26,355 nucleotides of DNA from a bacterium (GTDB lineage: Bacteria; SZUA-182; DTGQ01): the NCBI GenBank assembly GCA_040752695.1, contig JBFMGO010000087.1, positions 1-26,355 of the forward strand, written 5' to 3'. Made by a program: the position numbers and the translations under genes. The notes beneath the pieces are model-generated. The model was not told the origin of the DNA. It did not search any database and worked only from the letters and a program-made list of their open reading frames with translations. The stretch's first letter is position 1; each line of letters begins with the position of its first letter. Positions 1,424 to 19,739 of the stretch are shown here, piece after piece.

Positions 1424-1541
1424 AGTAGCACTGCAAGGGTTCTGAATTTTTCATAAGTTACTATACTTATTTCCTTATTTCCAGAGAACATCCTTATTTA
1501 AAATCAATATCCAAAGACCCCACAACCACCTACTTGAGTGG

Positions 1542-1814
1542 TTAACCTTGCGGAAAATAGCGGTAAATTTCTCTTCTATGCAAGAGCCTGACAAAGATAA
1601 CTGTCTCGCCATCTATAATCAGACCGAGCCTGTAATCTCCAAGCCTTAGGCGATAATAGTATCCCCCTGTCCTTAACCTTTTAAGCCCGCTAAGCTCCAT
1701 GATATTTGCACTCGCTTCAATTGCCTGGATTTTCTCCTTGATTTGATTAAGCAACTGCTTATCCTGGATATTCTTTAGGTCTTTGGCAAAGCTCGCTCTG
1801 AATTCCAATTTCAT
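1542..1814 (-). CDS. relE: Type II toxin, RelE/ParE family
   Basis: 90-aa basic protein with FAKDLK...YYRLRLGDYRLG...FVRLLHRREIYR, typical RelE/StbE motifs. It has an ATGA overlap with the upstream small acidic ORF. Confidence 0.9.
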   Translation of the reverse strand: MKLEFRASFAKDLKNIQDKQLLNQIKEKIQAIEASANIMELSGLKRLRTGGYYYRLRLGDYRLGLIIDGETVIFVRLLHRREIYRYFPQG

Positions 1815-3179: not shown

Positions 3180-3844
3180 AGACACATATCCTCCCTGATT
3201 ACCTTTCGCGGTCCTCCGTCCCTGCTCGTAGACCAGTTTTTGACAGGCATAATCTCGGCGAGGCTCTCAAGTCTGTTCAGGGCTTTCAGGCGCTCGTAAA
3301 TCAAATGCCAGCCGCAGTCGATGTCTTTATTGATTTCACACTTGCCGTTTTGCGATCCTCCGCAGGGACCGTTCAAAAGGCTCTTCGAGCAGCGTGAGAT
3401 CGGGCAGACTCCGCCGGTTTTATCCAGAATGCATTGGCCGCAGGCCTGGCAGCGCTCGACCCAGACGCCTTGCTTTTCCGGCAGGCCCAGGAGTTTGGTA
3501 TTCAGGGCAGGTATGACCGGCAGTGAGGGGAATTGCTCGGCTATGGTCTGGACACCGATTCCGCAGCCTGTCGAGATGAGAAGGTCATGTCCTTTGACTG
3601 CACTTTTCAAAGCGTCCACAAACTCCTTCTCACACTGACGCTCGATACTGGTTTCGTGCACCTCGGCCTCTTTCCCCTGCACCTTTAAAGCCAGACGCAG
3701 ACCAGAGGCTAAAATGGCCACCTCCTTGGCTCCACCGGCAAGACAAACCGTAACGCAGGTATCGCAGCCGATCACCAGGATATTCTGGCAGCCTTCGATC
3801 ATTTTGACAATTTCCGTTATATCTTTCTGTTCAGCAACAATCAT
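3176..3844 (-). CDS. metV: MetV, Cys-rich (Zn/FeS) MTHFR partner subunit, copy 1
   Basis: Motifs GCDTCVTVCLAGG, RQCE, CGIGVQ and ERCQACGQC...CPISRCSKSLLNGPCGG...KCE...DCGW. It lies directly upstream of metF. Confidence 0.9.
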   Translation of the reverse strand: MIVAEQKDITEIVKMIEGCQNILVIGCDTCVTVCLAGGAKEVAILASGLRLALKVQGKEAEVHETSIERQCEKEFVDALKSAVKGHDLLISTGCGIGVQTIAEQFPSLPVIPALNTKLLGLPEKQGVWVERCQACGQCILDKTGGVCPISRCSKSLLNGPCGGSQNGKCEINKDIDCGWHLIYERLKALNRLESLAEIMPVKNWSTSRDGGPRKVIREDMCL

Positions 3845-3913
3845 CGTTTCACCTTATTTACTTCTCCACTCCCCCTTTTTTCGAGGGGAAGCGCGAGATT
3901 TTTGCCATCTAGT

Positions 3914-4327
3914 CTAAGGTTCCTTTTTTACTGGACTTGGCCCCAGGTTCCTGATACTTTCATTGCCCAGTCGAACCATCTCCACAAATGCAGTCCATTC
4001 CAGTTCGGACAGAAAAAAGAACCGCAGCCGCTCTTTCTCGATCCCGATCTTCTCCAAAAGGGTACTCGTATGATCGATTCTTTTTCCTGCCCGTACGTTC
4101 CCCAACAGAAACTTGCAGCTATCCGGGTGACAGGCAAAGACAAACACCCCGTCAGCACCCTCTTCAAAGGCCTTCAGAATATGGATTATCTCCAGCTTTC
4201 CCGAGCAGGGAAGCCGGCAGATCCTGATGTTGGAAGGGTATCCTTCCTGCTGTGCCCCCGCTATGTCCGCAGCCCGGTAAGCGGAATTTTCGCAACAAAA
4301 TGCCACAATGGCCGGCGTAAAGTCCAT
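3914..4327 (-). CDS. mvhD: MvhD/FlpD-type [2Fe-2S] subunit (methyl-viologen-reducing hydrogenase delta family)
   Basis: Motifs AFCCENSAYRAAD, RLPCSGK, AFEEGADGV, ACHPDSCKF..GN and IGIEKERL. It follows the hdrA-like genes. Confidence 0.92.
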   Translation of the reverse strand: MDFTPAIVAFCCENSAYRAADIAGAQQEGYPSNIRICRLPCSGKLEIIHILKAFEEGADGVFVFACHPDSCKFLLGNVRAGKRIDHTSTLLEKIGIEKERLRFFFLSELEWTAFVEMVRLGNESIRNLGPSPVKKEP

Positions 4328-4332
4328 TAATT

Positions 4333-6144
4333 TTACCTCTCAAGGGTTAGTTCGGAAAAAATCTGATTATCTGAATAATGCACCATTTCAATAGCCTTGG
4401 CCGGACATTCACCGGCACAGATCCCGCACCCCTGACATGCTTCAGGGATAACCTTCGCTCCCCACTTCTGCCCCAGTTCGACCTCTCCGATTTCTATGGC
4501 CTGATGCGGGCAGGAGCGGAAACAGGTCAGGCACAGGGCGCATTTATCGGTGTCGATGACTACCTTTTGCTCGGTCTCCAGGTATCCGCGGGACAAGGTG
4601 GAGTAAACAGCCATGGCTACCGAACGTACATCACCGAGAGCCTCGCAGGTTTCTTCCTTCCCGTGACAGGAGCCGGCCAGGAAGATTCCCTTCTTGTTCG
4701 AAAGATTTGGCTTTAAGTGGATGTTCGCTTCCTGATAGAAGCCGCCCTTGTTCAGATTGACTCTGAGGGCATTTTTCAGACACTCGGTATCTTCGCCGGG
4801 AAGGATTTCATCCTCGAAGACCAGAAGGTCCGCATGGATGATGACAGGACGGGCTGCCCCCTCACTTTCCTGGCTGCCACATACCCCGGCATTTCCCGAT
4901 GCCGCCTTGGCTGAAGGCCGATCCAGGGCAGGATCATGAATCCGGACCGTGATAACGCCCTTTTCGATGCTGACCGTGGGCCCGGAATCTTCCGTAGAGC
5001 GGAAAAACAAAATTCCCGCCTGCCTGGCCTTTTGGTAAAGCGTTTCAATCTGTGTTCCTGAGACGATGATGTCTCTGGCCGCGATCACGACTTCCGCCTT
5101 AAACTGCTTTTTCAGGGCAATCGCTTCATTCAGCGCCATAACGGTGGACCTTTTGGCAAAGCCCTCTGCTTCACCGAGGATAAAGCAGACATATTTGGTC
5201 CTTTTGTCCGCAGTAACGAGGATCTGCTCAAGCGCCCTTCGCTCCCGCGTGACCAGGTCACTCAGGCCTGAAAGGCTGACGATTCTGTGGGAAGGACGCA
5301 AAGCGGTCATCTTTTGGACCGCCCTTTTTTCAGGCTCCGTACTGACCACAATGCTGCCTATATCCAGAATCTTTTCCTGGCCCGCAGTCTCCAAGGTTAC
5401 CCGGAAGGCACCGGGGCCGCCTTTTACCTGCGTAACCTGGCTCGAGGTCAAAATCTCGATCTTTTTATCATCGAGCTCTTTGAGCTTTTGCGTAATCCAG
5501 CCAGAGGAAAACACCTCATCACTCCCTTGTGCACCCTGGGTACAGGGATTCATGAAAGATGCATCCTTCGGGCACACCTTTTCCTGCTTCTCGACGAGAA
5601 TGGGCCTTAAGCCCAGGCCGTGCAGCTCAATGGCCATCTGGATACCCGAAATCCCAGCTCCGATCACCAGAGCCGAAGATTCCACCTTTCTTCTCACCTT
5701 CTCCAGGGGCTTGGCCAAAGCCACCCGCTTTATGGCAGATGAGAGTATCTGCCTGGCCTTTGGCATGCAGCCCTCTTTGTCAGCACATGCCCAGGCGCAC
5801 CCTTCCCGGATATTGGCTATGGTCAAAAAGGAGCGGTTCAACCCCGCTTCTTCAAGCACGTTCATGAAACGCACTTCGTACTGATGGGGAGAGCATCCGG
5901 CAATAACGAACCGGTTGCAGCCGGAGCGGACGATTTTGCTCCTCAGCCATTCAAGGCCGCTCCTGGTGCATAAAAAGCGGTTTTCGTCTACAAAGGCCAC
6001 ACCCGGTACTTGAGCTGCATAATCCATCAGGGCCTTGACATCGAAATAATCATTCATCATATGCCCGCAGGTGCAGAAGAATACCCCGATCTTTACCGGA
6101 ATCCCGTTATTCCCGCCAGTGCAGGAATCCAGATGATTATCCAT
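4333..6144 (-). CDS. hdrA: HdrA-like flavoprotein/FeS protein with a degenerate central cluster region
   Basis: HdrA N-terminal motifs (GVFFCTCG, FLC, IAGCSP, ANIREGCAW), Rossmann ALVIGAGISG, GIFLAGSC and C-terminal 2x[4Fe-4S] (CALCLTCFRSCP, CQGCGICAGECP). The QCVGSR..CS..CC motif is absent. Confidence 0.8.
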   Translation of the reverse strand: MDNHLDSCTGGNNGIPVKIGVFFCTCGHMMNDYFDVKALMDYAAQVPGVAFVDENRFLCTRSGLEWLRSKIVRSGCNRFVIAGCSPHQYEVRFMNVLEEAGLNRSFLTIANIREGCAWACADKEGCMPKARQILSSAIKRVALAKPLEKVRRKVESSALVIGAGISGIQMAIELHGLGLRPILVEKQEKVCPKDASFMNPCTQGAQGSDEVFSSGWITQKLKELDDKKIEILTSSQVTQVKGGPGAFRVTLETAGQEKILDIGSIVVSTEPEKRAVQKMTALRPSHRIVSLSGLSDLVTRERRALEQILVTADKRTKYVCFILGEAEGFAKRSTVMALNEAIALKKQFKAEVVIAARDIIVSGTQIETLYQKARQAGILFFRSTEDSGPTVSIEKGVITVRIHDPALDRPSAKAASGNAGVCGSQESEGAARPVIIHADLLVFEDEILPGEDTECLKNALRVNLNKGGFYQEANIHLKPNLSNKKGIFLAGSCHGKEETCEALGDVRSVAMAVYSTLSRGYLETEQKVVIDTDKCALCLTCFRSCPHQAIEIGEVELGQKWGAKVIPEACQGCGICAGECPAKAIEMVHYSDNQIFSELTLER

Positions 6145-7462
6145 GACATACCTCCTCCAAGCCCTTTTTCTTCAGCCCCCTCAAGAAGGCAACTGCCCGG
6201 AGAGCCGCCTCCTGGCCATGCGAAACGGATTCGACCAGGCTCTTTGGCCCCTGGCACGTGCCTGCAAGAAAGATCCCCGGCCGAGAGCTGACCGTCGAAT
6301 CCAGTAGATTCAAAGGAGCAAAGAATCCATCCCTGCCGGTCCTGAGACATAGGGTTTCGGCTAAAATCTGATTTTGCACAGCAGGGCTGATTCCCACCGA
6401 CAGAACCACCAGGTCAAAATCAGCACTCTCCATGCACCCCTTATCGATATTCTCATACCGCATTGAAACACCGGCTCCATTTCCCGCCTTTTCGATTTCT
6501 ACGGGGAGCCCCTTGATTAAGCTGATTTTCCCCCTCACCTGCTCGACGAGTGATAAAAACTCGCTTTCCGTTTTCTGCAGGTCGATGTAAAAAATAGTCA
6601 CTTCAGCATCACTGATCTGAGATTTGAGTTTGGCGGCCATGCGCACCGCGTATTTACAGCAAACTCTCGAGCAGTAATCCTGACTTATGTGCGGATCGCG
6701 GGAGCCAACACACTGAATGAAAGCTATCCTGGGGGGCATGTGCTCTTTCCCCTCCCTGGTAAGCGGACCGAAAAAGGCGCTGGCCCTTCCTGCAAGCAGC
6801 CTTTGCTCCAGGTCAAGCCCTGTAATCACCTCAGGGAGTCGGCCATAGCCAAGATGCCCTTTCTTTCGTGCATCATAGGCTGTAAAGCCGGTAGCCACAA
6901 CAAGAGCCGAGGCATGCAGGATTGTCGTTTCCTCTTTCTGGTTCAGGAAGATGGCCCCTGCCGGGCAATTGTCCTCACACAGGGCACAGCCGGTCTCCTG
7001 CTGAAAGGCCAGACAGTGGTTCCGGTCAATGGAAAACACATTCGGGATGGAAGACAGATAGGGCCGGCTGATGGCGATTCCAGGCTTCGGGCAGCTCTGA
7101 TAGCACAGAGAGCAGGCAATGCATTTATCTTCATCGATGAACCGCGGCTGCTTTCGAACATCAACTTCGAAAGAGACGCCGCCGTCTTTCAGCCTCACCT
7201 CGCGCACTCCCACCACTTCGGAGTGGGTCAAAAGGTGAATGTTGGGCGAGGATGCGGCCCTGGTGACCTTATCTTTAGCCAGGCAGACGCCGCAACTGTT
7301 GCATTGCTCGGTAGCCTTGCAGCAGAAGCTCAAAGCGTGGCCGCCAATACTTGATTTCTTTTCGACAACATACACTTCGTAGCCATTATCAGCCAGGGAG
7401 AGGGCAGAACTTACCCCGGCAATCCCGCCGCCGATAACAATGGCTTTGTCCTGATCGTTCAA
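6137..7462 (-). CDS. hdrA: HdrA-like FAD core protein lacking the N- and C-terminal HdrA FeS domains
   Basis: Rossmann VIGGGIAG, inserted ferredoxin (CIACSLCYQSCP; C...GCALCEDNCP), VATGF, IQCVGSRD...YCSRVCC, DLVVLSVG and GIFLAGTCQGPK. TTG start after an AAGGAGG RBS. Confidence 0.85.
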   Translation of the reverse strand: MNDQDKAIVIGGGIAGVSSALSLADNGYEVYVVEKKSSIGGHALSFCCKATEQCNSCGVCLAKDKVTRAASSPNIHLLTHSEVVGVREVRLKDGGVSFEVDVRKQPRFIDEDKCIACSLCYQSCPKPGIAISRPYLSSIPNVFSIDRNHCLAFQQETGCALCEDNCPAGAIFLNQKEETTILHASALVVATGFTAYDARKKGHLGYGRLPEVITGLDLEQRLLAGRASAFFGPLTREGKEHMPPRIAFIQCVGSRDPHISQDYCSRVCCKYAVRMAAKLKSQISDAEVTIFYIDLQKTESEFLSLVEQVRGKISLIKGLPVEIEKAGNGAGVSMRYENIDKGCMESADFDLVVLSVGISPAVQNQILAETLCLRTGRDGFFAPLNLLDSTVSSRPGIFLAGTCQGPKSLVESVSHGQEAALRAVAFLRGLKKKGLEEVCHG

Positions 7463-7517
7463 GGTCTGAAACCTCCTTTACGAGAAGCTGTCGGCATGTA
7501 ACATTTTCGTGAAAAGA

Positions 7518-7651
7518 AGAATTCAAAGAGTCAAGAGCAAAACTATCTTACATCCCCCCCTGCCCCCTTCAAAAAGGAGTGCTTTCCTTACTGCCGGCTT
7601 TTATCCTGACCTCTGTCTATACTCATTCAGACTCCTGACTCTTTGAATTCT
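7518..7651. repeat. Intergenic inverted repeat with a perfect 16-bp arm, plus degenerate heptamer repeats
   Basis: AGAATTCAAAGAGTCA (7518-7533) is the exact reverse complement of TGACTCTTTGAATTCT (7636-7651). CTGACTC-like units continue to 7680. Confidence 0.75.
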
Positions 7652-7680
7652 GACTCCTGTTCTTTGATTCTGACTTCTGA

Positions 7681-8604
7681 TCAATGAATTTCTGTCTCCT
7701 GGTTCGTCAGTCCCGCTCCATCCAGGATAGCCGGGATTTTCCCCTCAAGACCTATGGCCATGATGTGCACACCCGCGCACATACCCTGCACCTTTTGTAT
7801 CTGACGGCTGGCTATCCGGATTCCAGCTTCCAGGGGATCGGCCGAAGATTCCAATTCTTTGATCAAATGATCCGGCACCGTTACACCGGGGACATTCTGA
7901 TTGAGATACCGGGCCATGCCCGCAGACCGCAAAAGAAGAATCCCTGCCAGGATTGTGGCGCTAAGGTCATTGGCATATTTCATAAATCGTTCAAATTTCG
8001 TAAGGTCATAGATAGCCTGGGTCTGAAAAAATCTGGCTCCAGCGGCAACCTTTTTAGAAAACCGTACAAGGTGCGGCTCTAATGGGGAGGCTTCCGGATT
8101 CACCATGGCTCCGGGAAAAAGGTCGGTACTTCCCTCCAGGGCCGTGCCATTGGGCAGGGGCTTGTTCGCCATGGACCTGGTAGAAAAGTCACGCCCCTCG
8201 TTCAGGCGTCCGATGACCTGCAAAAGCTGTGTGGAATCAAGATCGAATACGGGCTTAGCCTGCGGATGGTCGCCCACTTTCGTGTGATCGCCGGTCAGAA
8301 CCAGGACATTTCTGATACCCAGCACGCTGGCACTGAGCAAGTCGGATTGCAGAGCGAGGCGGTTTCGGTCACGGCAGGTTATCTGATAGATAGGATCAAA
8401 GCCCTCCTCTTTGAGCAGATGGCAGGCAGCCAGGGAGCCGAGTCTCATAACCGAGCTCTGATTATCGGTCACATTGATTCCATGCACTCTCCCTTTCAGC
8501 TTATCTGCATGGGCCAGCATTTTTGAGACGTCGGTACCCTTCGGAGGGGCGATTTCGGCTGTAATGGTAAACTGTTTTTTTTCCAAGGCTTGCTGAAAGC
8601 CCAT
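7681..8604 (-). CDS. metF: Methylenetetrahydrofolate reductase MetF, copy 2
   Basis: Motifs EIAPPKG, NVTDNQ, QITCRDRNR, LTGD, FDLDS, FFQTQ and GVHIM. Confidence 0.92.
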   Translation of the reverse strand: MGFQQALEKKQFTITAEIAPPKGTDVSKMLAHADKLKGRVHGINVTDNQSSVMRLGSLAACHLLKEEGFDPIYQITCRDRNRLALQSDLLSASVLGIRNVLVLTGDHTKVGDHPQAKPVFDLDSTQLLQVIGRLNEGRDFSTRSMANKPLPNGTALEGSTDLFPGAMVNPEASPLEPHLVRFSKKVAAGARFFQTQAIYDLTKFERFMKYANDLSATILAGILLLRSAGMARYLNQNVPGVTVPDHLIKELESSADPLEAGIRIASRQIQKVQGMCAGVHIMAIGLEGKIPAILDGAGLTNQETEIH

Positions 8605-8636
8605 CCCAACCTCACTTACTTCTTATTCACTCTCTC

Positions 8637-9290
8637 TCACTTCTTCTTATTCACTGTCAAAACCCGAGGTTTGATGTTTTTGGAATAATCCTTGGGAGCA
8701 AAGACTTCCTTTATCGCCTCTACCTTTCCTAACTCTTTCAAACGCTCATAAATCTTGACCCAGGCACAGTCCCTGTCAGGATCAACCTCGCATTTGCCGT
8801 CACTCATGCCGCCACAGGGGCCATTCAAAAGCCCCTTGGAGCAGGTTGTCACCGGGCAGATCCCAGCCGTTTTGTCCAGGATGCACTCTCCACATAAAGA
8901 ACAGCGCTCCTCGAATTGCCCGAATCGCTTCACCGTGCCCAGAAAAAGGCTGTCCAGTGCAGGTACAGCCGGTACCTCCTGAAGTTCTGAAATCGTCTGG
9001 ACACCGGCACCACAGGCCATGACCACTACAGCTTCGGCTTCGGCCAGTTCGGCCTTTTTAAGCCGCAGCTCTTTTTTGCTGCTCAGAACATGGCAGGCAG
9101 ATTCAAGTACGCAATAACCCACAACCTCCCTGCCCTCTCCCGCAAGGAGTTGCTTCATCTCCAGAACCTGCTCTTCTCCCCCGCTCTGACAGGTGGCAGC
9201 GCACAGGCTGCAACCGATCAAGAAAACCTTTCTCTTCCCCTGAAGACTGCTCAGAATTTCATCGAAGGGTTTTTGCCGGGTGATGATCAT
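8637..9290 (-). CDS. metV: MetV, Cys-rich MTHFR partner subunit, copy 2
   Basis: Motifs GCSLCAATCQSGG, CGAGVQ and ERCSLCGEC...CPVTTCSKGLLNGPCGG...KCE...DCAW. Confidence 0.9.
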   Translation of the reverse strand: MIITRQKPFDEILSSLQGKRKVFLIGCSLCAATCQSGGEEQVLEMKQLLAGEGREVVGYCVLESACHVLSSKKELRLKKAELAEAEAVVVMACGAGVQTISELQEVPAVPALDSLFLGTVKRFGQFEERCSLCGECILDKTAGICPVTTCSKGLLNGPCGGMSDGKCEVDPDRDCAWVKIYERLKELGKVEAIKEVFAPKDYSKNIKPRVLTVNKKK

Positions 9291-9291
9291 A

Positions 9292-9669
9292 TCAGTTGTA
9301 CTCTTCTTGCAGGTACTGCTGGTATTCCTCCTCGTCGAGCAGGTTATTCAGTTCCCCGGGATTTTCCAGGAGCACCTTGATAATCCATCCTCTTTCGTAA
9401 GGATCCTCATTGACCAACTCCGGCTCGTCATCGAGGGCTTCGTTTACCTCGGTAACGGTGCCGCTTACCGGAGAGATCAGGTCAGTTACCGCTTTGGAGG
9501 ATTCAATCTGGCCAAAAGAGCTTGACTGCCGCACCTTTTTACCAGTAGTTTCAACCAGTAAAACGTCACCCAACTCCTCCTGAGCATGATCGGTGATTCC
9601 AACTATTCCCTTATTCCCCTCCACTCTGACCCACAAGTGCTCTTTATTGAAGTATAATTTTCCAGCCAT
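9292..9669 (-). CDS. gcvH: Glycine cleavage system H protein (lipoyl carrier)
   Basis: Motifs EHLWV, VGITDHAQEELGD, IESSKAV (lipoyl Lys), PVSG and PELVNEDPY..GWI. The ATG at 9669 follows an AAGGAG RBS (the ORF track starts at 9687). Confidence 0.93.
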   Translation of the reverse strand: MAGKLYFNKEHLWVRVEGNKGIVGITDHAQEELGDVLLVETTGKKVRQSSSFGQIESSKAVTDLISPVSGTVTEVNEALDDEPELVNEDPYERGWIIKVLLENPGELNNLLDEEEYQQYLQEEYN

Positions 9670-9723
9670 GATCAATCTCTCCTTCATTTTCCCTCATGAG
9701 AAGACGGCAAAAAGCATTCAAAA

Positions 9724-9797
9724 AGCCTGCCCGAAAAAATCCTTAGAAAGACACTTCATCACCATGAGTGCCTTAAAACCCGCTTTTCGGACAGGTT
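9724..9797. repeat. 74-bp element with 14-bp imperfect terminal inverted repeats (MITE-like or an mRNA stem)
   Basis: AGCCTGCCCGAAAA (9724-9737) and TTTTCGGACAGGTT (9784-9797) are 12/14 complementary. Confidence 0.55.
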
Positions 9798-10645
9798 CAG
9801 GAGAAAATCTCCGCAGATTTAACGGTATTCGCCATAAGCATGGTAATGGTCATGGGACCTACGCCGCCAGGCACGGGAGTGATCGCTGCAACTTTGTCTT
9901 TCATCCCTTCAAAGTCCACATCCCCGACAAGCTTTCCATCTGCAAGGCGGTTTACTCCGACATCAATTACCACAGCCCCTTCCTTGACCATATCGGCCGT
10001 GATCATCTTCGGTTTGCCAATGGCGGCGATAAGGATATCGGCCCTCTTAGTCTCATCAGCCAGGGATTTTGTTCTTGAGTGGCAAATGGTTACCGTGGCA
10101 TGCTCATGCAACAGCAGGCTGGCCACTGGTTTTCCGACAATATTGCTTCGGCCTACCACCACGACATTTTTCCCTTTGATGTCGATCTTACTGGCGTGCA
10201 GAAGTTCGACCACTCCGGCCGGTGTGCAGGGGGGAAAAAGGGCTTTTCCCAGGACGAGATTGCCAATATTCACCGGATGAAAGCCATCTACATCCTTGGT
10301 GGGGACAATCGCCTCAATGACCATTTCCTCGTTGAAATGGCCGGGCAGAGGGAGCTGAACTAAAATTCCGTTGATTTTCTCATCCTGATTCAGCCGGTTG
10401 ATAAGGGCCAATACCTCGTCCTGACTGGTATTGGCAGGCAGGGCGTATTTCTCGGAATGAATGCCAAGGCTCTCGCAGGCCTTCTCCTTCATGCGGACAT
10501 AGACCTTTGAGGCAGGATTTTCCCCTACCAGAATAACTGCCAGTCCGGGAGTTTTCCCTTTTTCCTTGAGAGTTTCAATCCTGCTTTTCAGCTTTTCCCG
10601 CAACTCATTGCCGATTTTCGTCCCGTCGATAATCATGCCACTCAT
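9797..10645 (-). CDS. folD: Bifunctional methylene-THF dehydrogenase / methenyl-THF cyclohydrolase
   Basis: Motifs PGLAVILVG, YVRMK, GILVQLPLP, KDVDGFHP, PCTPAG, GRSNIVGKP and TPVPGGVGPMT. Confidence 0.97.
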   Translation of the reverse strand: MSGMIIDGTKIGNELREKLKSRIETLKEKGKTPGLAVILVGENPASKVYVRMKEKACESLGIHSEKYALPANTSQDEVLALINRLNQDEKINGILVQLPLPGHFNEEMVIEAIVPTKDVDGFHPVNIGNLVLGKALFPPCTPAGVVELLHASKIDIKGKNVVVVGRSNIVGKPVASLLLHEHATVTICHSRTKSLADETKRADILIAAIGKPKMITADMVKEGAVVIDVGVNRLADGKLVGDVDFEGMKDKVAAITPVPGGVGPMTITMLMANTVKSAEIFS

Positions 10646-10777
10646 TCACGACCCTCCTTAATTTCCTTTTATCTTCCTCAATCCTTGAGGCATCAAGGTC
10701 TGTTCTTCCTGTATTGAAAACCTTCCTCCCTTGTTTCTCATGTTCTCTTCATTCAAGAAAACCTTACCGCAGAACCC

Positions 10778-11335
10778 TCAGCGGTTCTGAATGAGTTCCA
10801 GCATCTCCGCCCTTGTTTTCGGATTGGTTCGAAAGGCACCCCGTACAGCCGAAGTAATCACTTTGGCATGAGGTTTTTTCACCCCCCGCATGGACATGCA
10901 CAGGTGTTCGGCCTGGATCACCACCATGGCGCCTATCGGTTTCAATCCATCCATAACGATATTCACCAGTTCCTTGGTCAGCCGTTCCTGAAGCTGGGGC
11001 CTCTTGGCCAGTACATCGAGAATCTGGGCCAGTTTGCTGATTCCTATGATCTCCCCGCGGTTGGGCAGATAGGCGATGTGGGCATCTCCAAAGAAGGGAA
11101 GCAGATGGTGCTCACAGATTGAATAAAAGGGGAGATCTTTCACCAGCACCATCTCGTCATATTCCTCTCCCTTAATGGGAGTCATGATCTTTCGCGGGTC
11201 CCGCTCCAATCCGGCAAAAATTTCCTGGTACATCTCGGCTATGCGGACCGGCGTTCTCTCCACTCCCGGCCAGTCGGCTATGCCGATGCCTTCAAGGACC
11301 AGCCTGACCCCTGCCTCTATTTTTTGTGTATCCAT
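10778..11335 (-). CDS. folE: GTP cyclohydrolase I (type IA)
   Basis: Motifs [31 protein letters not shown] and HLCMSMRGV. Confidence 0.96.
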
Positions 11336-11509
11336 TTTTCCTTATTTTCTTGACTGCTGTTGCCTTGCATACACCACGCATGAAATACGCGGCCAGTTAG
11401 GTGTTCCGCTCAGGTGCCATGGAGTCCTTGTTTGCACCCTCCCTAATCTGCTGTTTCCTTCCCCGAAATCCTCATATGAGCCGCTTGTTAGAGGCTTTTG
11501 AGAGGCCGG

Positions 11510-12295
11510 TTACTGCCGGGCAGCCAGCCTGGCATCCAGGAATTTTTTGATTTTCTCGATCCCGGCAACTGTTTCCCGGCAGGAGGAAAAGGGGGATTCC
11601 CCCTTTGAATCAGCCTCGACCAGTTCCCAGGAGAATGGCAAAAAGCCGATGATTTCAAAATCGGGCAACTGGCTCTGAATAAACTCTTTATCCTCAGGAT
11701 TTCGCACCTTGTTGGCGACGAGAAAACTTTCCGAAATCCCCAGATCCAGAGCCAACTGACGGATATCCCGGGCGGTCTGAAGGCTCCTTTTACCCGGCTC
11801 TACGACAATCAAAAAGGCATTGACCGCTCTGGCCGTTCCTCTGCCCAGATGCTCGATTCCGGCCTCCATGTCCAGAATCAGCATTTCCCCCTTCTTCAAT
11901 AGAAGATGAGTCACCAGGGTCTTGAGAAAGACGCCTTCAGGGCAATAACATCCGCTGCCGCCGGGCTTGGGTTTGCCAAGTGACAGAAGGCGGATGTTTT
12001 CAAACTGGATCCCGAACCGGTCAGCCACATCATCCACAGAAGGGTTCATCCTGAAAAATCCTCCTGCTCCTCCCGGCCTGGCACCCGTACGCTCTTCAAT
12101 CAGGGAGGATAAGGAACAAAGAGGCTGAATCTTCAGGATTTCCGATTCCGGAAAGCCAATAGCCGATGCCAGATTTGCATCCGGATCAGCATCGACGGCC
12201 AGGACCTTTTGTCCCGTTTGAGAATAGAGTCTTGCCAGGACGGCAGATACCGTAGTTTTTCCCACTCCTCCTTTACCAGTAACAGCAATTTTCAC
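11510..12295 (-). CDS. cooC: CooC/AcsF-family nickel-insertion ATPase (CODH/ACS maturation)
   Basis: Deviant Walker A GKGGVGKTT, DADPDANL, GCYCPE (CxC Ni site) and DMEAGIEHLGRG. GTG start after AGGAG. Confidence 0.92.
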   Translation of the reverse strand: MKIAVTGKGGVGKTTVSAVLARLYSQTGQKVLAVDADPDANLASAIGFPESEILKIQPLCSLSSLIEERTGARPGGAGGFFRMNPSVDDVADRFGIQFENIRLLSLGKPKPGGSGCYCPEGVFLKTLVTHLLLKKGEMLILDMEAGIEHLGRGTARAVNAFLIVVEPGKRSLQTARDIRQLALDLGISESFLVANKVRNPEDKEFIQSQLPDFEIIGFLPFSWELVEADSKGESPFSSCRETVAGIEKIKKFLDARLAARQ

Positions 12296-12378: not shown

Positions 12379-13176
12379 TTAAATAAACTCCGAACCATAG
12401 CCTATCCGGCGGGAAATCTCCAGAGCGGCCTTTTTGACCAAAGGAACCAGTTCTTTCTCCACCCTCTCGTCAGACATTCGATGAATGGGACCGGAAATAC
12501 ACACACCGGCCACCACGTTCTCCGTATAATCCCGTATGGGAGCGCCGACGCACTTGACGTCTTCTTCGTATTCTTCATTATCGACAGCGTAACCCTGGCT
12601 GCGAACCAGATCCAAATGCTTCAACATCTCCGTTTCCGAAATGATGGTGTTTTTCGTAAAACCCTTAAGCCCTGTTTCCTTGAGCAGTTTCCGGATCTCC
12701 TCCGGTGATTTGTAGGCTATCTGCACTTTGCCGGCTGAAGTGCAAAATATCGGGGACCTGCGGCCCAGCATGGGGATAATTCGAACCGGACGGCTGGTTT
12801 CCATCATATCGACATAGATAACCTCTCCACGGTCGCAAACGGACAGATAAACGGTTTCCATGGTCTTGGTTGCCAGTGCGTCGAGAATATCATGGGCCTG
12901 GCTGACCAGTCCCATCCTTCGCAAGCAGGATTGCCCCAATTCGAAACACCTCAACCCGAGACGGTAATTGCCGGTAGCGGGATTCTGCTCGATGTATCCC
13001 TGATAGGAGAGAGTGGAAAGCAATCGAAAAATATTGTTTTTGGGAAGTCTCAATCGATTGCTTAAAGTGGTGACTCCGAGCTCTTTCTCATTACTCATGA
13101 TAAAGACATTCAAAACGTCCAGAGCATGAAGTACAGACTGAATCAAGTACTCAGAAGCTTCTTTCTTATGCATCAC
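12379..13176 (-). CDS. IclR-family transcriptional regulator
   Basis: N-terminal HTH (IQSVLHALDVL...LGVTTLS..L.LPKNNIFRLL.TL...GY...YRLG) and C-terminal effector domain (CTSAGK, GYAVDNEE, CVGAPI, ISGP). The start is GTG 13176 or ATG 13173. Confidence 0.95.
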   Translation of the reverse strand: MMHKKEASEYLIQSVLHALDVLNVFIMSNEKELGVTTLSNRLRLPKNNIFRLLSTLSYQGYIEQNPATGNYRLGLRCFELGQSCLRRMGLVSQAHDILDALATKTMETVYLSVCDRGEVIYVDMMETSRPVRIIPMLGRRSPIFCTSAGKVQIAYKSPEEIRKLLKETGLKGFTKNTIISETEMLKHLDLVRSQGYAVDNEEYEEDVKCVGAPIRDYTENVVAGVCISGPIHRMSDERVEKELVPLVKKAALEISRRIGYGSEFI

Positions 13177-13742: not shown

Positions 13743-14276
13743 CTATCTGGTTTCTCGAAAGGTACGCTGGTTGTGGCATTCTGTGCAGTCGGTGCCGTTT
13801 TCGCCCTCATGAACATCCCGATGGCAATGAATGCATTGATTTTTATCGAGCAGATAGCTGCCCTTCTTATGGCAGGCTTCGCATTTTAAAAGATCATGGC
13901 TGCCCTCTATCGGCCATCCGGTTAAGGCGTGATCAAAGGTTTTCGGATCTATATGCGCGATACGATATGACCTTCCATGATGTTCTGAATGGCAGTGTTC
14001 GCATTCCCAGGAAACCCTGGAATGGAAACCGGTTTTGGCTTGAATCATCGTTTTGATTTCCTGGTGGCAATCCAGACATTTCCTGGTATCCAGCCGTTTG
14101 CCTCTCGTATGGCAGGCCGCACAATCACCGTTTGCATCAAGTTCTTCATGCGCCGAGGAGAGCGGGCCGGGGGAAAACAGTTGAGACCATTTGAGGTGAC
14201 ATCCCGCATACAGGAACACCGAAACGCACGCTATTACGAAAATAAGGAAAAGAGTCCTTCTCGTCAGAAGATCCAT
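13743..14276 (-). CDS. Exported or membrane-anchored hexaheme c-type cytochrome
   Basis: Six CxxCH motifs (CAACH, CLDCH, CEHCH, CEACH, CIHCH, CTECH), an N-terminal basic plus hydrophobic segment, an SPGPLSSAH motif and many spare His for bis-His ligation. Confidence 0.92.
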   Translation of the reverse strand: MDLLTRRTLFLIFVIACVSVFLYAGCHLKWSQLFSPGPLSSAHEELDANGDCAACHTRGKRLDTRKCLDCHQEIKTMIQAKTGFHSRVSWECEHCHSEHHGRSYRIAHIDPKTFDHALTGWPIEGSHDLLKCEACHKKGSYLLDKNQCIHCHRDVHEGENGTDCTECHNQRTFRETR

Positions 14277-15142
14277 CGATACCCCCAGTATGAGGTAACC
14301 AGAACATGGGCCAGGGTAATGAAAAAAAGCAGGTAACTGGAAACCTTATGAATAATCTCCCATTTGTTCAATACGCAAAGACATACATCCAGAACGGCGA
14401 TGGAGCGGATATCTCTCAGCCTCTTGATAAGCTGGTCTGCCCACTTGTGCAACTCACCCTGTTGATCATCGTCATATTTTTCGTTTATGAGATCGAGCAA
14501 AGACCCGGTTTCTTTTTTGATCGACCGCCACTGGCGGATTGTTTCGACGAGTCCTGAACTGCACGGGAATCCAGGCGGTTTCAGGTCCATTATTCTTTCG
14601 ATGACCGGGGAAATCCGGCTGGCGTTTCTTAAATCCCTCTCTATGAGAAGGTCGATTTCATGCAGGGGCTCATAGATAGAGGAAATGCCCCAAAAGCAGT
14701 ACCCGGCGAGAAACCTTCCGAACACTCCTGAAATCACCACGACAATCATGAGCCAGAACGCCACCCCGACTATCCCCTTAAGGGCAAAAGCGGAATGGAA
14801 CACAATAAGGACGGGGCCCAGAATACCAAAGAAAACATGGATCTCCAGCCAGAGGGAAAGAGGGCCTAAAAACTCAAAACACTCGACCCTTTTCCTCAAG
14901 ACATAGAGAGTGTAGGAAAGAAGCATGAAAATGGTTCCCACAACGCCCAGTGCATGACCTACGGTTCCCGAAGGTTTAAATCGAAGGTGCAGCGCAGTGT
15001 TAAGATACCTGACCTGCTCAGGGATGAAAATATACGGCTTGTAGAGGAAGGAGAGATACCCTGCCGTAAGGATAACGAGAATAAGCCACAAAAGACGAAA
15101 AATCCACTGCCTGTCCCGATAACGAACTCTATTCTCTGCCAT
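14264..15142 (-). CDS. Polytopic membrane protein, probable di-heme b (ferric-reductase-like) transmembrane electron conduit
   Basis: About 5-6 hydrophobic helices and two H-x13-H helices (HVFFGILGPVLIVFH; HKVSSYLLFFITLAH). The ATG at 15142 lies just after the upstream stop; the 15343 extension in the ORF track overlaps the upstream gene. Confidence 0.75.
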   Translation of the reverse strand: MAENRVRYRDRQWIFRLLWLILVILTAGYLSFLYKPYIFIPEQVRYLNTALHLRFKPSGTVGHALGVVGTIFMLLSYTLYVLRKRVECFEFLGPLSLWLEIHVFFGILGPVLIVFHSAFALKGIVGVAFWLMIVVVISGVFGRFLAGYCFWGISSIYEPLHEIDLLIERDLRNASRISPVIERIMDLKPPGFPCSSGLVETIRQWRSIKKETGSLLDLINEKYDDDQQGELHKWADQLIKRLRDIRSIAVLDVCLCVLNKWEIIHKVSSYLLFFITLAHVLVTSYWGYRWIF

Positions 15143-15150
15143 TGTTTCCC

Positions 15151-16419
15151 TTACCTTCGGTCCCTGGGAGCTTTTCCTTCGTCCCCATGGTGAGCACCGT
15201 GAGCATGATGGGCATGGTGATCCCCGCTTTCGGCCCCTTCGAGTGAGTACTTTAAGAGCTCCCTCAACTCGACATTGATCGACCCCTTGTTCTTCGAGAT
15301 AAAGTCTTCGATAGTCATGATCTTGAGAGCCCCTGTGGGACAATTATGAACGCAGGCCCTGTTTGAATAGCCTGCACAGCCATCACATTTTACCGCTACC
15401 TTGAACTGGCGTTTTTTCCTGATATTCCGGTCTATGTAATCGAGGGTGATAGCGCCTGTCGGACATATCTTGGCGCATTCGCCGCATCCCGTACATGCCT
15501 GGGTAAGCTCAAGGAACGGAGTGCCGATCCGTCTGTTGATGCCGCGCTGTACAAATCCTATGGCGCTTGCCCCGATATTCTGCTCGCAGACACGAACGCA
15601 GAGCCCGCACAGAATGCAGGCATCCGGGTCATTCCTGAGCATAAAGCGGCTCTTGGCCACTCCCGCATCCTTGGCCATGTTCTCGATTACGTCAGAACCC
15701 GGACATCTGGCCATGAGCAGTTCAAAAATCATCCTGCGGGTTTTTATCACCCTTTCCGTATCAGTCGTTACGATGATGCCTTCCTGCACGGGATACATGC
15801 AAGAAGGGTAGAGGCGGGTTATCTTCCCTGCGCTCACCTCAACCAGGCAGATACGGCAGGCGCCCAGAGAACTCACCGCCGGATGATAGCAAAGGGTGGG
15901 GATATGGATGCCATATCTATTGGCAACGTCCAACACCGTCTCCTCCCGCATACCCATTACCGCCTGCTCATTGATGGTGAATTGGACCAGGTCCTCCCTC
16001 GGCCTGTATTCCAGGATAACCCGCGAAAGAAAGACCGATTCCTGTCTGAGCCGGTCCAGAACCACCAGAGGAAGCCGGTCGATGTAGTCCTCCGTTTTGA
16101 TTATGCAGTGCGTAGCGCCCAGCCTCAGCGCGTCAGCAGCCATCATCTCATTTCTGTGACCGATCAGAACTATCACGGGCTTTTTGTAGTGCCCCCGTAT
16201 CTTCTGTAAAACCTCAAGGCCATTTTTCCGGGTAAGCTCGAGGTCAAGGATGATGAGGTCATACTGTATCGCCTTCTCAAGATATGAAAAGCACTCCTCA
16301 GCACTCGCAGCAGGCTCTATGATCATGGACCCGGGTAGACCATGCAGCTTTTCCTTGATCAATCTGGCATGAGTAGGATCATCTTCAAGCAGAAGGATAG
16401 TATTTATGGCGTTTTCCAT
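15151..16419 (-). CDS. Fusion of a response-regulator receiver domain, a NuoG/HydA-type N-terminal FeS module ([2Fe-2S] + 2x[4Fe-4S]), an orphan [4Fe-4S] Cys group and a His-rich tail
   Basis: Receiver: LLLEDD...LIILD59...GA..IIK108. FeS: IPTLCYH...GACRIC...SC, CILCGLCVRVC and CTGCGECAKICP. Extra group KCDGCAGYSNRACVHNCP. Tail HHAHHAHGAHH. There is no H-cluster or molybdopterin domain. Confidence 0.85.
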   Translation of the reverse strand: MENAINTILLLEDDPTHARLIKEKLHGLPGSMIIEPAASAEECFSYLEKAIQYDLIILDLELTRKNGLEVLQKIRGHYKKPVIVLIGHRNEMMAADALRLGATHCIIKTEDYIDRLPLVVLDRLRQESVFLSRVILEYRPREDLVQFTINEQAVMGMREETVLDVANRYGIHIPTLCYHPAVSSLGACRICLVEVSAGKITRLYPSCMYPVQEGIIVTTDTERVIKTRRMIFELLMARCPGSDVIENMAKDAGVAKSRFMLRNDPDACILCGLCVRVCEQNIGASAIGFVQRGINRRIGTPFLELTQACTGCGECAKICPTGAITLDYIDRNIRKKRQFKVAVKCDGCAGYSNRACVHNCPTGALKIMTIEDFISKNKGSINVELRELLKYSLEGAESGDHHAHHAHGAHHGDEGKAPRDRR

Positions 16420-16526
16420 CTTTTACCTCTTTCATGAACCCGTTTTCATTCACCTTTTGCCTCTCTCACTCACCCTTTTTGCCCCTTTCATTCCGCTGCC
16501 ACTCTTTCTGTCCCGCCTCTTCCAGG

Positions 16527-18374
16527 CTACTGCACCCAGACGGCCTGTACAGGGCATGCCTTAAAGCAGATCCCGCACTTTATGCATTTTGTCTGATCAA
16601 TGCTGTGGGGTCTTTTTTTCTCACCGCTGACTGCGGACTGCGGGCACTGCCGGGCACATTTCGTACACCCGATGCATTTTGTCTCGTCGATCCCGTACCT
16701 GATCAAAGCCCTGCATACCCTGGCAGGACAGCGCTTGTCCTGGATATGGGCCAGATATTCATCCTCGAAATGTCTTATCGTGGATAAGACGGGATTGGGG
16801 GCCGTCTGCCCCAGGGCACACAACGAAGCATCTTTTATAACCGCCGACATCTCCTTCAGAAGATCGAGGTCACTCAACGCTCCCGTGCCCTTGGTGATTC
16901 CCGTTACGATGTTGAGCATCTGGCTGATTCCTTCCCTGCAGGGGACGCATTTGCCGCACGACTCGCCCTGTAAAAAGTTCAGGAAATAGCGGGCAACCTC
17001 GACCATGCAGGTATCCTCGTCCATAACGATCATCCCGCCTGACCCCATCATGGAGCCAGCCTTGGTGAGTTGGTCAAAATCAATGGGTAAGTCAAGCATA
17101 TGGTCCGGCATGCAGCCCCCGGATGGCCCGCCGGTCTGCACGGCTTTAAATTTTTTCTTATTGGGAACCCCTCCGCCGATGGTAAATACGATTTCCCGCA
17201 AAGAGGTGCCCATGGGGACCTCCACCAGACCCGTATTATTAATCTTGCCCACTAGGGAAAAAACCTTGGTGCCCTTGCTTCCCTCGGTGCCAAAAGAGGC
17301 AAACCAGTCGGCTCCCCGGTCGAGAATAATCGGGATATTGGCAAAGGTTTCCACGTTATTGATCAGGGTCGGTTTCCCCCATAACCCCTTTTGGGCTGGA
17401 AAGGGTGGTTTGGGTTTCGGTGTGCCTTCACGGCCCTCAAGGGACATGATCAGGGCGGTCTCTTCACCGCATACAAAGGCGCCGCTCCCCTTGCTGATAT
17501 GAATATCAAAGCGAAATCCTGAGCCAAGAATATTCTCGCCGAGCAGATTATACTGCCGGCAGCTTTGAATAGCTGTATCGAGGTTCTTGACAGCCAGAGG
17601 GTATTCTGCCCTTACATATACATAGCCTTCCGAGCTCCCTATGGCTCTGGCCGCGACCGCCATCCCCTCGACTACTGCGAAAGGATTTCCTTCAATGATG
17701 CTTCTATCCATATAGGCACCAGGATCACCCTCATCAGCGTTGCATACTACATATTTTTGGTCCGCCTGACTCTCTGCCGTGAGTTTCCACTTGAGCCCCG
17801 TGGGAAATCCTCCGCCTCCTCTGCCCCGAAGGCCGGATTTCATGATCTCGCCGATGATGTCCTCGGGTTTCAGGTGAAACAATGCCCTGGACAGGGCTGA
17901 AAAGCCGCTGAAGGCAATATAGTCATCGATCGAAACAGGATCAATAAAGCCGTTGTTTTTTAATACGATTCTCTTCTGACCTTTGTAAAAGGGAATATCC
18001 CTTTCAAAAACAATTTTGTTTCCGCTGAGAGGATCCGTATACAAGAGCTTTTCAATTACCTTGTTCCTTTGAATGGTCTGCTCGATGATATCTTTGGCAT
18101 CTTCGGGAGAAATCCTGTGATAAAATATCCCCTGTGGCCGAATTACGGCCAGAGGCCCCATTTCACAAAAGCCGTGGCACCCCGATATGAGCAGCCTGAC
18201 AGACTCGGTCATCCCTCTTTGGGCCAGTTCATCCTTGAAGGCGGTAATGACCTTTTCACAACTGTATGCGCGACAGCCCGTTCCCCCGCAGATAATAATA
18301 CAGGGCTTGTTAAAATCTGCCTTCTGGTTAACCGACTTTCTGTACTCTTCCAAATCGATCGCTGACTTCAGCAC
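16527..18374 (-). CDS. NuoF/HydB-type NAD(H)/FMN-binding subunit, long (bifurcating-type) form
   Basis: N-terminal CGGTGC...GCHGFC [2Fe-2S], GLRGRGGGGFPTG, NADEGDPGAYMDR, GAFVCGEETAL, GGPSGGC, ESCGKCVPCREG...SLCALG, H...CPARVC and two C-terminal [4Fe-4S]. The start is probably GTG 18374 after GAGG (the ORF track gives TTG 18422). Confidence 0.93.
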   Translation of the reverse strand: MLKSAIDLEEYRKSVNQKADFNKPCIIICGGTGCRAYSCEKVITAFKDELAQRGMTESVRLLISGCHGFCEMGPLAVIRPQGIFYHRISPEDAKDIIEQTIQRNKVIEKLLYTDPLSGNKIVFERDIPFYKGQKRIVLKNNGFIDPVSIDDYIAFSGFSALSRALFHLKPEDIIGEIMKSGLRGRGGGGFPTGLKWKLTAESQADQKYVVCNADEGDPGAYMDRSIIEGNPFAVVEGMAVAARAIGSSEGYVYVRAEYPLAVKNLDTAIQSCRQYNLLGENILGSGFRFDIHISKGSGAFVCGEETALIMSLEGREGTPKPKPPFPAQKGLWGKPTLINNVETFANIPIILDRGADWFASFGTEGSKGTKVFSLVGKINNTGLVEVPMGTSLREIVFTIGGGVPNKKKFKAVQTGGPSGGCMPDHMLDLPIDFDQLTKAGSMMGSGGMIVMDEDTCMVEVARYFLNFLQGESCGKCVPCREGISQMLNIVTGITKGTGALSDLDLLKEMSAVIKDASLCALGQTAPNPVLSTIRHFEDEYLAHIQDKRCPARVCRALIRYGIDETKCIGCTKCARQCPQSAVSGEKKRPHSIDQTKCIKCGICFKACPVQAVWVQ

Positions 18375-18453
18375 TGACGAAACCTCGCTTTCGATGTATC
18401 TTCCTTCAAACCAGCCCCCCAACTACATGTAGCATCTTCATCGAACATCCTCA

Positions 18454-19326
18454 TCAAGTGTTCTCATCAAACATCTTGAGTATTGAGCTGATCTTCTCAG
18501 GTGTTACCTTACCGAAATACTCTCCGTCAATAACCATGACCGGCCCGAGAGCACACGCGCCCAGACAGTTAACACTCTCCAGGGTAAATTTCATATCCTC
18601 TGTCGTTTCACCTGCCTTGATCCCCAAGATCCGCTCAAGTTCATCGAGAATCTTGGCCGCGCCTCTCACATGGCAGGCTGTACCCATGCATACGTGAATA
18701 ATGTGACGCCCCCTGGGAATAAGGCTGAAGGCGTTATAAAAGGTCGCCACATTGTAAACCCGGCTGAGCGGAACACCCATTTTACCGGCAACAGCTATCA
18801 GGGCCTCCCTGGGAAGGTACTTATATTCGATCTGGATCTCCTGCAAAACGGTCATTAAAGAGCTCGGAACCCTGGGAAACCGATCGATTATTTCGTCTAT
18901 CTTCCTGACATCCAAAAGCCCGTCGTTTGTATTTTCCACTTCGGCCTTCTGCGGCATTACGAACGAGATTATTTTATCCAGAAGTGTTGTTTCCTGCTCC
19001 TGCTTTGAAAACAGAAGAATAGCGCTGTATGGGCAGGCTCTCATACATAAGCCGCATCCTACACAATTTTCCGTGACAACAATATGCCCTTCCTCATCTT
19101 TTTCAACCCCATGGCGGTTGCAGGTCTCAATACATTTAGGGTTTCTACATATCTTACAGAGGTTAGGGATGAGGCTGATGCCAATAATGGCCGAGCGATC
19201 TCTGACGTGCCTGGAAACATCCTTATGCCTTCTCTTACAGGCTGCGATGCAATTACCGCAGTTAAGGCACTGTTTAATGTCACTTACTACTATCGTTTGA
19301 GAATCTGCCATATAAGAGTCTGCCAT
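18454..19326 (-). CDS. Fusion of three DmsB/HydN-type [4Fe-4S] Cys groups with a NuoE/HydC [2Fe-2S] subunit
   Basis: N-terminus: CLNCGNCIAAC, CKICRNPKCIETC and CVGCGLCMRACP. C-terminus: NuoE motifs VATFYNAF, VCMGTACHVRGA and VNCLGACALGP. Confidence 0.88.
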   Translation of the reverse strand: MADSYMADSQTIVVSDIKQCLNCGNCIAACKRRHKDVSRHVRDRSAIIGISLIPNLCKICRNPKCIETCNRHGVEKDEEGHIVVTENCVGCGLCMRACPYSAILLFSKQEQETTLLDKIISFVMPQKAEVENTNDGLLDVRKIDEIIDRFPRVPSSLMTVLQEIQIEYKYLPREALIAVAGKMGVPLSRVYNVATFYNAFSLIPRGRHIIHVCMGTACHVRGAAKILDELERILGIKAGETTEDMKFTLESVNCLGACALGPVMVIDGEYFGKVTPEKISSILKMFDENT

Positions 19327-19709: not shown

Positions 19710-19739
19710 AGTATACTCATTTCTCTCACAGCGTGTCAA
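19710..19739 (-). promoter_or_regulatory. Sigma70-type promoter for the NuoEFG-like/cytochrome operon
   Basis: Minus strand TTGACA-18 nt-TATACT, implying a leader of about 380 nt. Confidence 0.55.

Follow-up and report, generated by a model that had tools for sequence, protein, structure and literature searches.

The window, that is, the whole stretch of DNA analysed (26,355 nucleotides), is one whole contig (JBFMGO010000087.1) of a 6.0-Mb bacterial genome assembly (GCA_040752695.1; 96.6% complete). Its minus strand carries five genes, called here E, F, G, M and the cytochrome gene (C in gene orders; Table 1). Gene E joins three cysteine groups of a ferredoxin (groups I-III) to a NuoE/BfuC domain and gene F encodes NuoF/BfuB. 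Gene G encodes a receiver (REC) domain (residues 8-111), a BfuA/NuoG' part with a [2Fe-2S] domain (144-221) and a 2x[4Fe-4S] pair (C268-C319), and then a lone ferredoxin group IV, 3.64 kb from groups I-III. Proteins of the HycB/HydN/DmsB type (HycB3 7QV7_A, HycB 7Z0S_B) share the four cysteine groups, the KCD signature and the fold, but carry all four groups on a single polypeptide. Here groups I-III and group IV belong to different genes and the fold is kept, as judged from models. The first-pass annotation of the window had located the groups and their motifs, and had noted that E has no group IV and that a lone 'KCD' group IV lies about 3.6 kb downstream in G. Translation confirms all of this; the sequence quoted there for group IV opens with AVK, 9 nt before the C345 codon. 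The analysis presented below shows that the split ferredoxin is real, conserved and well supported computationally, and that it is restricted to a small lineage of uncultured, probably anaerobic bacteria.

Table 1. Features of the operon, in window coordinates
Feature	Position	Strand	Details
Sigma-70-like match, 11/12 positions	19710..19739	minus	Upstream of gene E; consensus match only
Gene E, ferredoxin groups I-III + NuoE/BfuC	18454..19326	minus	290 aa; possible true start at ATG 19311, the point at which homologues begin
Cys group I	19237..19269	minus	C20-x2-C23-x2-C26-x3-C30 in gene E
Cys group II	19120..19158	minus	C57-x2-C60-x4-C65-x3-C69 in gene E
Cys group III	19030..19065	minus	C88-x2-C91-x2-C94-x3-C98-P99 in gene E
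Helix and variable linker after group III (split site)	18903..19029	minus	Same loop long and variable in intact relatives
NuoE/BfuC domain (PF01257, residues 143-285)	18472..18900	minus	C1 [2Fe-2S] ligands C213, C218, C254, C258
Gene F, NuoF/BfuB	16527..18422	minus	631 aa counted from TTG; homologues begin at GTG 18374
Gene G, REC + BfuA/NuoG' + group IV + C-terminal helices	15151..16419	minus	422 aa; atypical receiver
REC domain of G	16087..16398	minus	Asp59 present in window copy
Cys group IV	15337..15387	minus	K344-C345-D-x-C348-x7-C356-x3-C360-P361 in gene G
Membrane protein M	14264..15142	minus	292 aa from ATG 15142
Hexahaem c-type cytochrome	13743..14276	minus	Six CxxCH, N-terminal membrane anchor

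Each ferredoxin half is present as a single copy in the genome. Four group IV-type motifs were found there by pattern, and only that of the window has no group II upstream in its open reading frame (ORF). Homologue counts refer to the 120 best matches listed per protein. All 12 cysteines of groups I-III are invariant in the aligned E fusions (25/25) and all four of group IV are kept in the G fusions (30/30), while group IV is found in none of those E fusions (0/25) and group I in none of those G fusions (0/30). Such invariance of the ligands across both fusions argues that the split pattern is not due to chance. The first-pass annotation had named poor conservation of these residues as grounds for doubting its reading; all 16 ferredoxin cysteines proved invariant in the homologues. 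It had also proposed a profile search, and a hidden Markov model (HMM) of 163 positions, for which the only input was distant relatives with all four groups in a single chain (123 of 140), is indeed tiled by the two halves: E covers positions 2-117 and G positions 121-162. NuoF, two HdrA-like proteins of the window and two ordinary BfuA proteins gave no match at HMM positions 121-162. None of 90 ordinary BfuA matches has a group IV after its 2x[4Fe-4S] pair, and 39 of the 90 have a zinc-finger pattern (WorA-type) at that place.

Are groups I and IV perhaps inert relics, with only groups II and III in use or the ferredoxin non-functional? Type 2 Bfu complexes (see below) can recruit a separate ferredoxin subunit by a helix alone, according to one report (PMC12318220). 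However, the eight cysteines of groups I and IV are invariant in proteins 50-86% identical, whereas the phosphorylation site of the nearby REC domain drifts, which makes this explanation very improbable.

The E architecture occurs in at least 24 further protein clusters (58-86% identity) and the G architecture in at least 29 (50-83% identity), two of them without REC. A query with P0149, a single-chain form described below, matches 13 of the phylum's 20 genomes. When the sample is widened to 41 genomes, the 21 from outside the phylum yield a single match, an intact form that has a cyclic nucleotide monophosphate (cNMP) domain. An assembly chimera, which the first-pass annotation had listed as fatal to its claim, or a frameshift artefact can be discounted almost completely: the fusions recur in over 20 protein clusters, drawn from several sources and independent assemblies, and in 13 of the 20 genomes of the phylum.

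Both halves occur together in 16 loci, which include some near copies (the window, L022, L024-L030, L032-L034, L053, L055, L056 and L058). Their gene orders are E-F-G-M-C (5), F-E-G (7), E-G-M-C-F (3) and G-M-C-F-E (1); in some loci a contig end removes M and C. Wherever just one half is present (L035, L037, L054, L057, L059, L061, L063, L065 and L066), the locus runs up to a contig edge. In 11 of the 13 positive genomes there are as many N-halves as group IV halves, and the two exceptions are at contig ends. NuoF of the rearranged loci belongs to another clade (100/100 support), and E and G remain paired there. The E-F-G arrangement on which the first-pass annotation was based holds for the window but is one of four orders, and the NuoF clade differs in the rearranged loci.

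Relatives with the whole ferredoxin in one chain also exist. Plain intact ferredoxins are P0149 (207 aa), P0241, P0387 and P0388 (217-226 aa) and P0389 (179 aa); in P0153, P0186 and L021 an intact ferredoxin is fused to M; and in P0146-P0148, P0242 and L031 (~380 aa) the N-terminal helices of NuoE and the 2x[4Fe-4S] pair of NuoG are kept between groups III and IV. The halves are rejoined in such natural single chains at three or more distinct junctions. P0149 aligns over its full length with HycB3 (7QV7_A, E-value 2e-17) and likewise with E. coli HycB. Intact ferredoxins immediately upstream of the same membrane protein and cytochrome genes, for which the first-pass annotation had recommended a search, are found in L021, L023, L051 and L052 and, as a distant case, in L036. 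A stand-alone I-III protein of 124-132 aa occurs in six clusters. In L031 (7343-11971, G009:C61) the gene for this protein comes before the 380-aa gene and a G gene, so that N-halves and group IV halves number two each; L060, L062 and L064 begin in the same way. No NuoF or NuoE C-domain was found in the 19 kb of L031 that were analysed, and a locus of this type may encode a longer cluster chain without flavin.

Genes rejoined in frame raise the question of whether the working ferredoxin is a single chain, the halves being joined beforehand through programmed excision of DNA or through splicing of RNA or protein. P0149 (a singleton on a 1.5-kb contig, and possibly an assembly product) is 95% identical to a split E across 63% of its length; P0389 is found on three contigs from two sources. 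However, the joined genes have diverged and their junctions differ, a repeat search gave no convincing pair flanking the two junctions, and the annotation of the operon genes shows neither a recombinase nor an intein. Moreover, excision cannot rejoin the halves of L028, since its group IV gene lies upstream of its I-III gene. Rejoining of this kind is accordingly a highly unlikely explanation, and we retain the reading in which the two halves work as separate chains.

Members of the wider family are intact; most have cNMP-binding domains, and FAD/NAD(P)H and FHA domains are found in some. The loop between groups III and IV ranges in this family from about 20 to 100 residues, and L036 has a cNMP-type intact gene followed by an M homologue and then a cytochrome gene. 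Given these features, an intact ancestor and a single insertion is the simplest reading, and the sequences make insertion of a cassette into an intact ancestral ferredoxin likely. In trees for which 17 or 10 outgroup rows were used, L023/P0241 and L021/L051/L052, all of them intact, split off first and the split forms make one clade (support 99/96 with LG+G4, 82/94 with a mixture model); the membrane-protein tree is unrooted, having a single long outgroup. P0149 is sister to the split L053 (100/96), and its grouping with the intact ferredoxin-M fusions is rejected (approximately unbiased test, p 4e-6). P0389 is sister to the split L058 (100/98), and the 380-aa type also nests among split forms. 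This nesting indicates that P0149, P0389 and the ~380-aa type are re-fusions by deletion, a status that, judged from the sequences, is firmer than the placement of the root.

In the DmsB/NarH/FdnH-type fold, groups I and IV swap ligands. An AlphaFold2 (AF2) model of P0146 (99-row alignment) has predicted local distance difference test (pLDDT) values of 87-97 over groups I-III and 93-97 over group IV; an AF2 model of P0149 (8-row alignment) was unusable (pLDDT 45). Compared over its whole length through a VIA alignment, the P0146 model matches the whole chain of HycB 7Z0S_B with Z 13.6 and a root-mean-square deviation (rmsd) of 5.7 over 151 residues (model residues 8-351, across a 220-residue insert), and HycB3 7QV7_A with Z 13.2 and rmsd 3.2 over 130 residues. 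As groups I-III by themselves span only about 100 residues, these alignments show group IV docked into the core of the model. Foldseek aligned mainly the I-III part, with WorS as the top match. A two-chain model was then made of window E(1-125) and G(327-398) with four clusters, together with three controls. The pair scored 0.80 (runs 0.51, 0.80 and 0.82) and all three controls 0.00. Among solved complexes 116 of 157 attain this mark, as do 2 of 215 mismatches; these figures apply only roughly to the present case. The runs have 81% or more of their contacts in common, and the pLDDT of the partner does not fall below 64. Among the cysteine pairs placed best are E C30-G C356, E C26-G C360 and E C26-G C356, and strands at G 342-344 and 364-365 pair with E. 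The two-chain model thus displays the I/IV swap expected of the HycB/DmsB fold, and the four-cluster domain for which the first-pass annotation had proposed such modelling is reconstituted in it. An intertwined I/IV and II/III fold is seen, in models, both in the single-chain relative and in the window pair. Taken with the conservation, co-occurrence and re-fusion of the halves, clusters held between the E and G subunits are very probable.

Several points weigh against this account. With 8 outgroup rows the root shifts among the split forms, and L023/P0241 and L021/L051/L052 become sister to the window's group; the evolutionary direction is thus not fixed, the root moving with the outgroup. 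Of the first-pass proposal that nuoE-nuoF-REC-nuoG' was inserted in the III-IV loop, the intact relatives and the variable loop stand in its favour, but the root is unstable and the nearest intact forms are partly re-fusions. The NuoG 2x[4Fe-4S] insert of the P0146 model has low pLDDT (37-59). One of the three two-chain runs reached only 0.51, and calibration of the score is rough for this job. Since like folds have already been solved, a pass in this test means likeness rather than binding, and the score may be a memory of solved HycB/WorS folds. The modelling tool does not assign cysteines to clusters; ligation was read from Cys-Cys proximity and the DmsB/NarH pattern. Finally, a natural lone-motif peptide is reported to bind its cluster partly as a monomer (PMC12648291).

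That peptide, which is there described as a monomer/dimer mixture, bears on the possibility that each half satisfies its own cysteines, group IV forming a mononuclear Zn site or a single cluster and group I serving alone or in an E-E homodimer. Stand-alone I-III proteins of 124-132 aa would agree with this, as would the position of group IV at the spot of the zinc-finger pattern seen in 39 of 90 ordinary BfuA matches; WorA itself has a zinc finger there (PMC12318220). On the other hand, group IV retains the full ferredoxin signature and its flanking strands, the stand-alone I-III gene of L031 lies in a locus that has two halves of each kind in all, the heterodimer model passes with swap geometry, and natural deletions rejoin the halves as ordinary intact proteins. 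We therefore regard self-sufficient halves as unlikely, and prefer clusters shared between E and G.

Enzymes of the BfuABC family couple NAD(H) and ferredoxin to a third substrate. A Type 2 Bfu has a BfuA with A1, A2 and A4 but no A3 or A5, and extra subunits feed A4 (PMC9304861). G has the A1/A2/A4 ligands (C177/188/191/207 and C268-C319) and only C239 is left at the A3 site; A5 and the C-terminal catalytic domain are lacking. By its sequence, the window operon is classed as a Type 2 Bfu. Its NuoF has the flavin mononucleotide (FMN)/NADH site, B5 [2Fe-2S], B1, the B2/Zn site (C472, H559, C565, C570) and B3/B4. Ligands of B1, B2/Zn, B3 and B4 are present in 16/16 NuoF rows; for B5, C82/C86 are found in 16/16 and C45/C50 in 14/16 as aligned, all of them in the window. 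The C1 ligands of BfuC are invariant (25/25). Bifurcating beta subunits have A/E232, M234, F367 and GGPSG in T. maritima numbering (PMC7311640). A236, M238, F341 and GGPSG (431-435) of the window NuoF were placed by motif, not by alignment to T. maritima HydB, and the F341 position is His in 11 of 16 NuoF relatives. The NuoF proteins of L024, L025, L026, L028, L029, L030, L032, L035, L037, L055 and L058 form their own clade, with His at window Phe341, which matches neither the Phe expected of bifurcating subunits nor the Tyr of non-bifurcating ones.

The REC domain of G is not a canonical receiver. Asp59 is present in 9 of 30 members and replaced by Asn in 14; position 86, canonically Thr/Ser, is Thr/Ser in 0 of the 28 rows that have a residue there, and Lys108 is present in 28/28. 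With the Asp in only 9/30 members and REC absent from L033, control by phosphorylation is doubtful. Extra receiver-domain genes adjoin the operon in L022, L025, L026, L027, L028 and L032, some of them beside long genes resembling sensor kinases.

Protein M has overlapping hydrophobic stretches that correspond to about 4-5 helices and no match in Pfam or NCBIfam. Two H-x13-H pairs are conserved, H102/H116 in 20/20 aligned rows and H265/H279 in 19/20 (one row being truncated), and from these four His we infer that M is a dihaem b protein. The two pairs, together with the anchored hexahaem cytochrome, suggest a dihaem-b bridge to a periplasmic haem chain.

We propose that the five genes specify one membrane-attached redox complex, in which a Type 2 Bfu (HydABC/NuoEFG-like) NADH/ferredoxin module would have been inserted in frame in the III-IV loop of a HycB/DmsB-type ferredoxin. 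The ancestral ferredoxin would have belonged to a conduit of ferredoxin, dihaem-b membrane protein and multihaem cytochrome. It would now be rebuilt in trans, with the II/III clusters wholly in the NuoE chain, one shared cluster on E C20/C23/C26 and G C360, and the other on G C345/C348/C356 and E C30; these two clusters and a common beta-sheet would staple BfuC to BfuA. The predicted path runs from FMN through B1, A1, A2 and A4 to the shared I/IV clusters, then to II/III, the two b haems and the periplasmic hexahaem cytochrome.

In NarH and FdnH the I/IV clusters face the catalytic side and the II/III clusters the membrane haem. By analogy with this arrangement the shared clusters are probably the entry from BfuA, next to A4, and the II/III pair the exit to haem b. 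The first-pass annotation had made the shared clusters the electron exit to the membrane subunit, for which the entry is the more likely role. We infer cluster occupancy, the order of the wire, haem b, bifurcation and direction; for direction, export from NADH/ferredoxin is slightly favoured over all else, import is a weaker candidate and anything else weaker still. Genes for acetyl-CoA synthase and for several [NiFe] hydrogenase large subunits are present in the genome, and no DsrA scores above the cut-off; this gene content fits an anaerobe.

Clusters that bridge subunits are known, for example FX of photosystem I and that of NifH. The best solved match of the NuoG' part is WorA (E-value 1e-43) of WorABCSL from Acetomicrobium mobile (PDB 9MQX), which like the window system is a Type 2 Bfu with a BfuA lacking A3. 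As described in PMC12318220, the WorA C-terminus recruits the 4x[4Fe-4S] protein WorS, with 10.7 Å from A4 to S4. WorS forms a complete chain of its own, attached through a helix, and the C-terminus of WorA is a zinc finger. The window BfuA, by contrast, itself contributes a quarter of the ferredoxin, whose remainder is joined to BfuC, and the system has a membrane haem conduit as its partner instead of a tungsten enzyme. Nanowires of WorS, AorA and HycB3-4 are reported in that source to exchange a C-terminal helix between subunits and not cluster ligands. Designed half-ferredoxins (semidoxins) dimerise around two [4Fe-4S] clusters with one motif per chain, but are small homodimers (PMC12648291), unlike the two different domains on large subunits of the window.

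By description, the conduit resembles the PtdEFG core of ptdABCDEFG, where PtdE, PtdF and PtdG are described in a preprint (bioRxiv 10.1101/2023.11.21.568154) as an Fe-S protein with a cNMP domain, a membrane protein resembling ferric reductases and a cytochrome with multiple haems. Among intact chains, those closest to the window ferredoxin are cNMP-domain fusions, and L036 shows a PtdEFG-like gene order. Possible counterparts of PtdF and PtdG at the window are M, with its His pairs, and the cytochrome with its six CxxCH; M has no Pfam match, and the likeness is by description only. The window system differs from Ptd in having no cNMP domain, porin or PtdA, but a Bfu module and REC instead, and a cytochrome with six haems. 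PF00027 is absent from E and G of the window and present in distant intact relatives.

Splitting by a Bfu cassette recurs, as HdrA fusions found among the matches indicate. An HdrA N-half with one ferredoxin motif is fused to NuoE in P0217, P0159, P0165, P0167, P0190, P0235, P0221, P0160, P0174 and P0220 (the 10 N-half examples inspected), and NuoG' is fused to an HdrA C-half in P0031, P0033, P0036, P0043 and others (25 of 90 G-side matches exceed 560 aa, 8 of them inspected). There too a NuoE-NuoF-NuoG' cassette lies between two ferredoxin motifs, NuoE carrying the N-half and NuoG' the C-half; the host differs, being a flavoprotein with a 2x[4Fe-4S] insert whose FAD domain is also split, and has no membrane haem conduit. 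As a tentative generalization, BfuC-BfuB-BfuA might be a portable insert in ferredoxin loops (HycB-type and HdrA), portable because the BfuC N-terminus and the BfuA C-terminus are close together, with the shared clusters as an assembly gate that would let electrons through to the membrane only in the docked state of BfuA and BfuC, and the receiver possibly controlling that step. No description of this split or operon was found in the literature searched, mostly outside subscription journals; the 1558-locus BfuB list of PMC9304861 could hold a member, and the word 'cytochrome' is absent from the main text of that 2022 survey.

Other features of the region can be listed briefly. The helix after group III is amphipathic to the eye. 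No membrane-anchor role is claimed for it: its moment of 1.86 is below those of the protein's ten highest 11-mers, and P0389 lacks the helix. The C-terminal tail of G (about residues 397-422; 15154-15230, minus strand) is His-rich only in the window copy among 30 aligned. In a promoter scan the total of sigma-70-like matches in the region did not exceed that of shuffles. Positions 2232-12295 of the minus strand hold a folate/one-carbon cluster (two metF-metV pairs, mvhD, two hdrA-like genes, gcvH, folD, folE and the gene of a CooC-like ATPase), at the head of which stands an IclR regulator gene (12379-13176). This cluster resembles an HdrA/MvhD-linked methylene-tetrahydrofolate reductase. A link between it and the operon is not supported: MetF, MetV, FolD, FolE, GcvH, MvhD, CooC and IclR match no ORF in L021-L037. 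At 266-1814 (minus strand) lies a low-GC (about 39%) contig end, whose ORFs, going by motifs only, may be a phospholipase D (PLD)-like nuclease and a small RelE/ParE-like ORF. Elsewhere in the genome, a second nuoE-nuoF-nuoG-like set (G000:C9 53605-56043) and a NuoE-like gene (C16 71807-72367) have no matches to the ferredoxin halves. Neighbours of L024, L058 and L061 resemble the NfnAB transhydrogenase and a soluble [NiFe] hydrogenase, going by N-terminal sequence and motifs only.

Because nature offers closely similar sequences in split, rejoined, partly deleted and stand-alone half form, the claim is testable with a few small constructs. If true, it would provide a natural ferredoxin fold completed in trans by two unlike subunits, which would bear on how clusters are loaded when their ligands come from two chains and on the evolution of modular redox complexes. 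It would also add a Bfu type coupled to a transmembrane haem b/periplasmic cytochrome c conduit.

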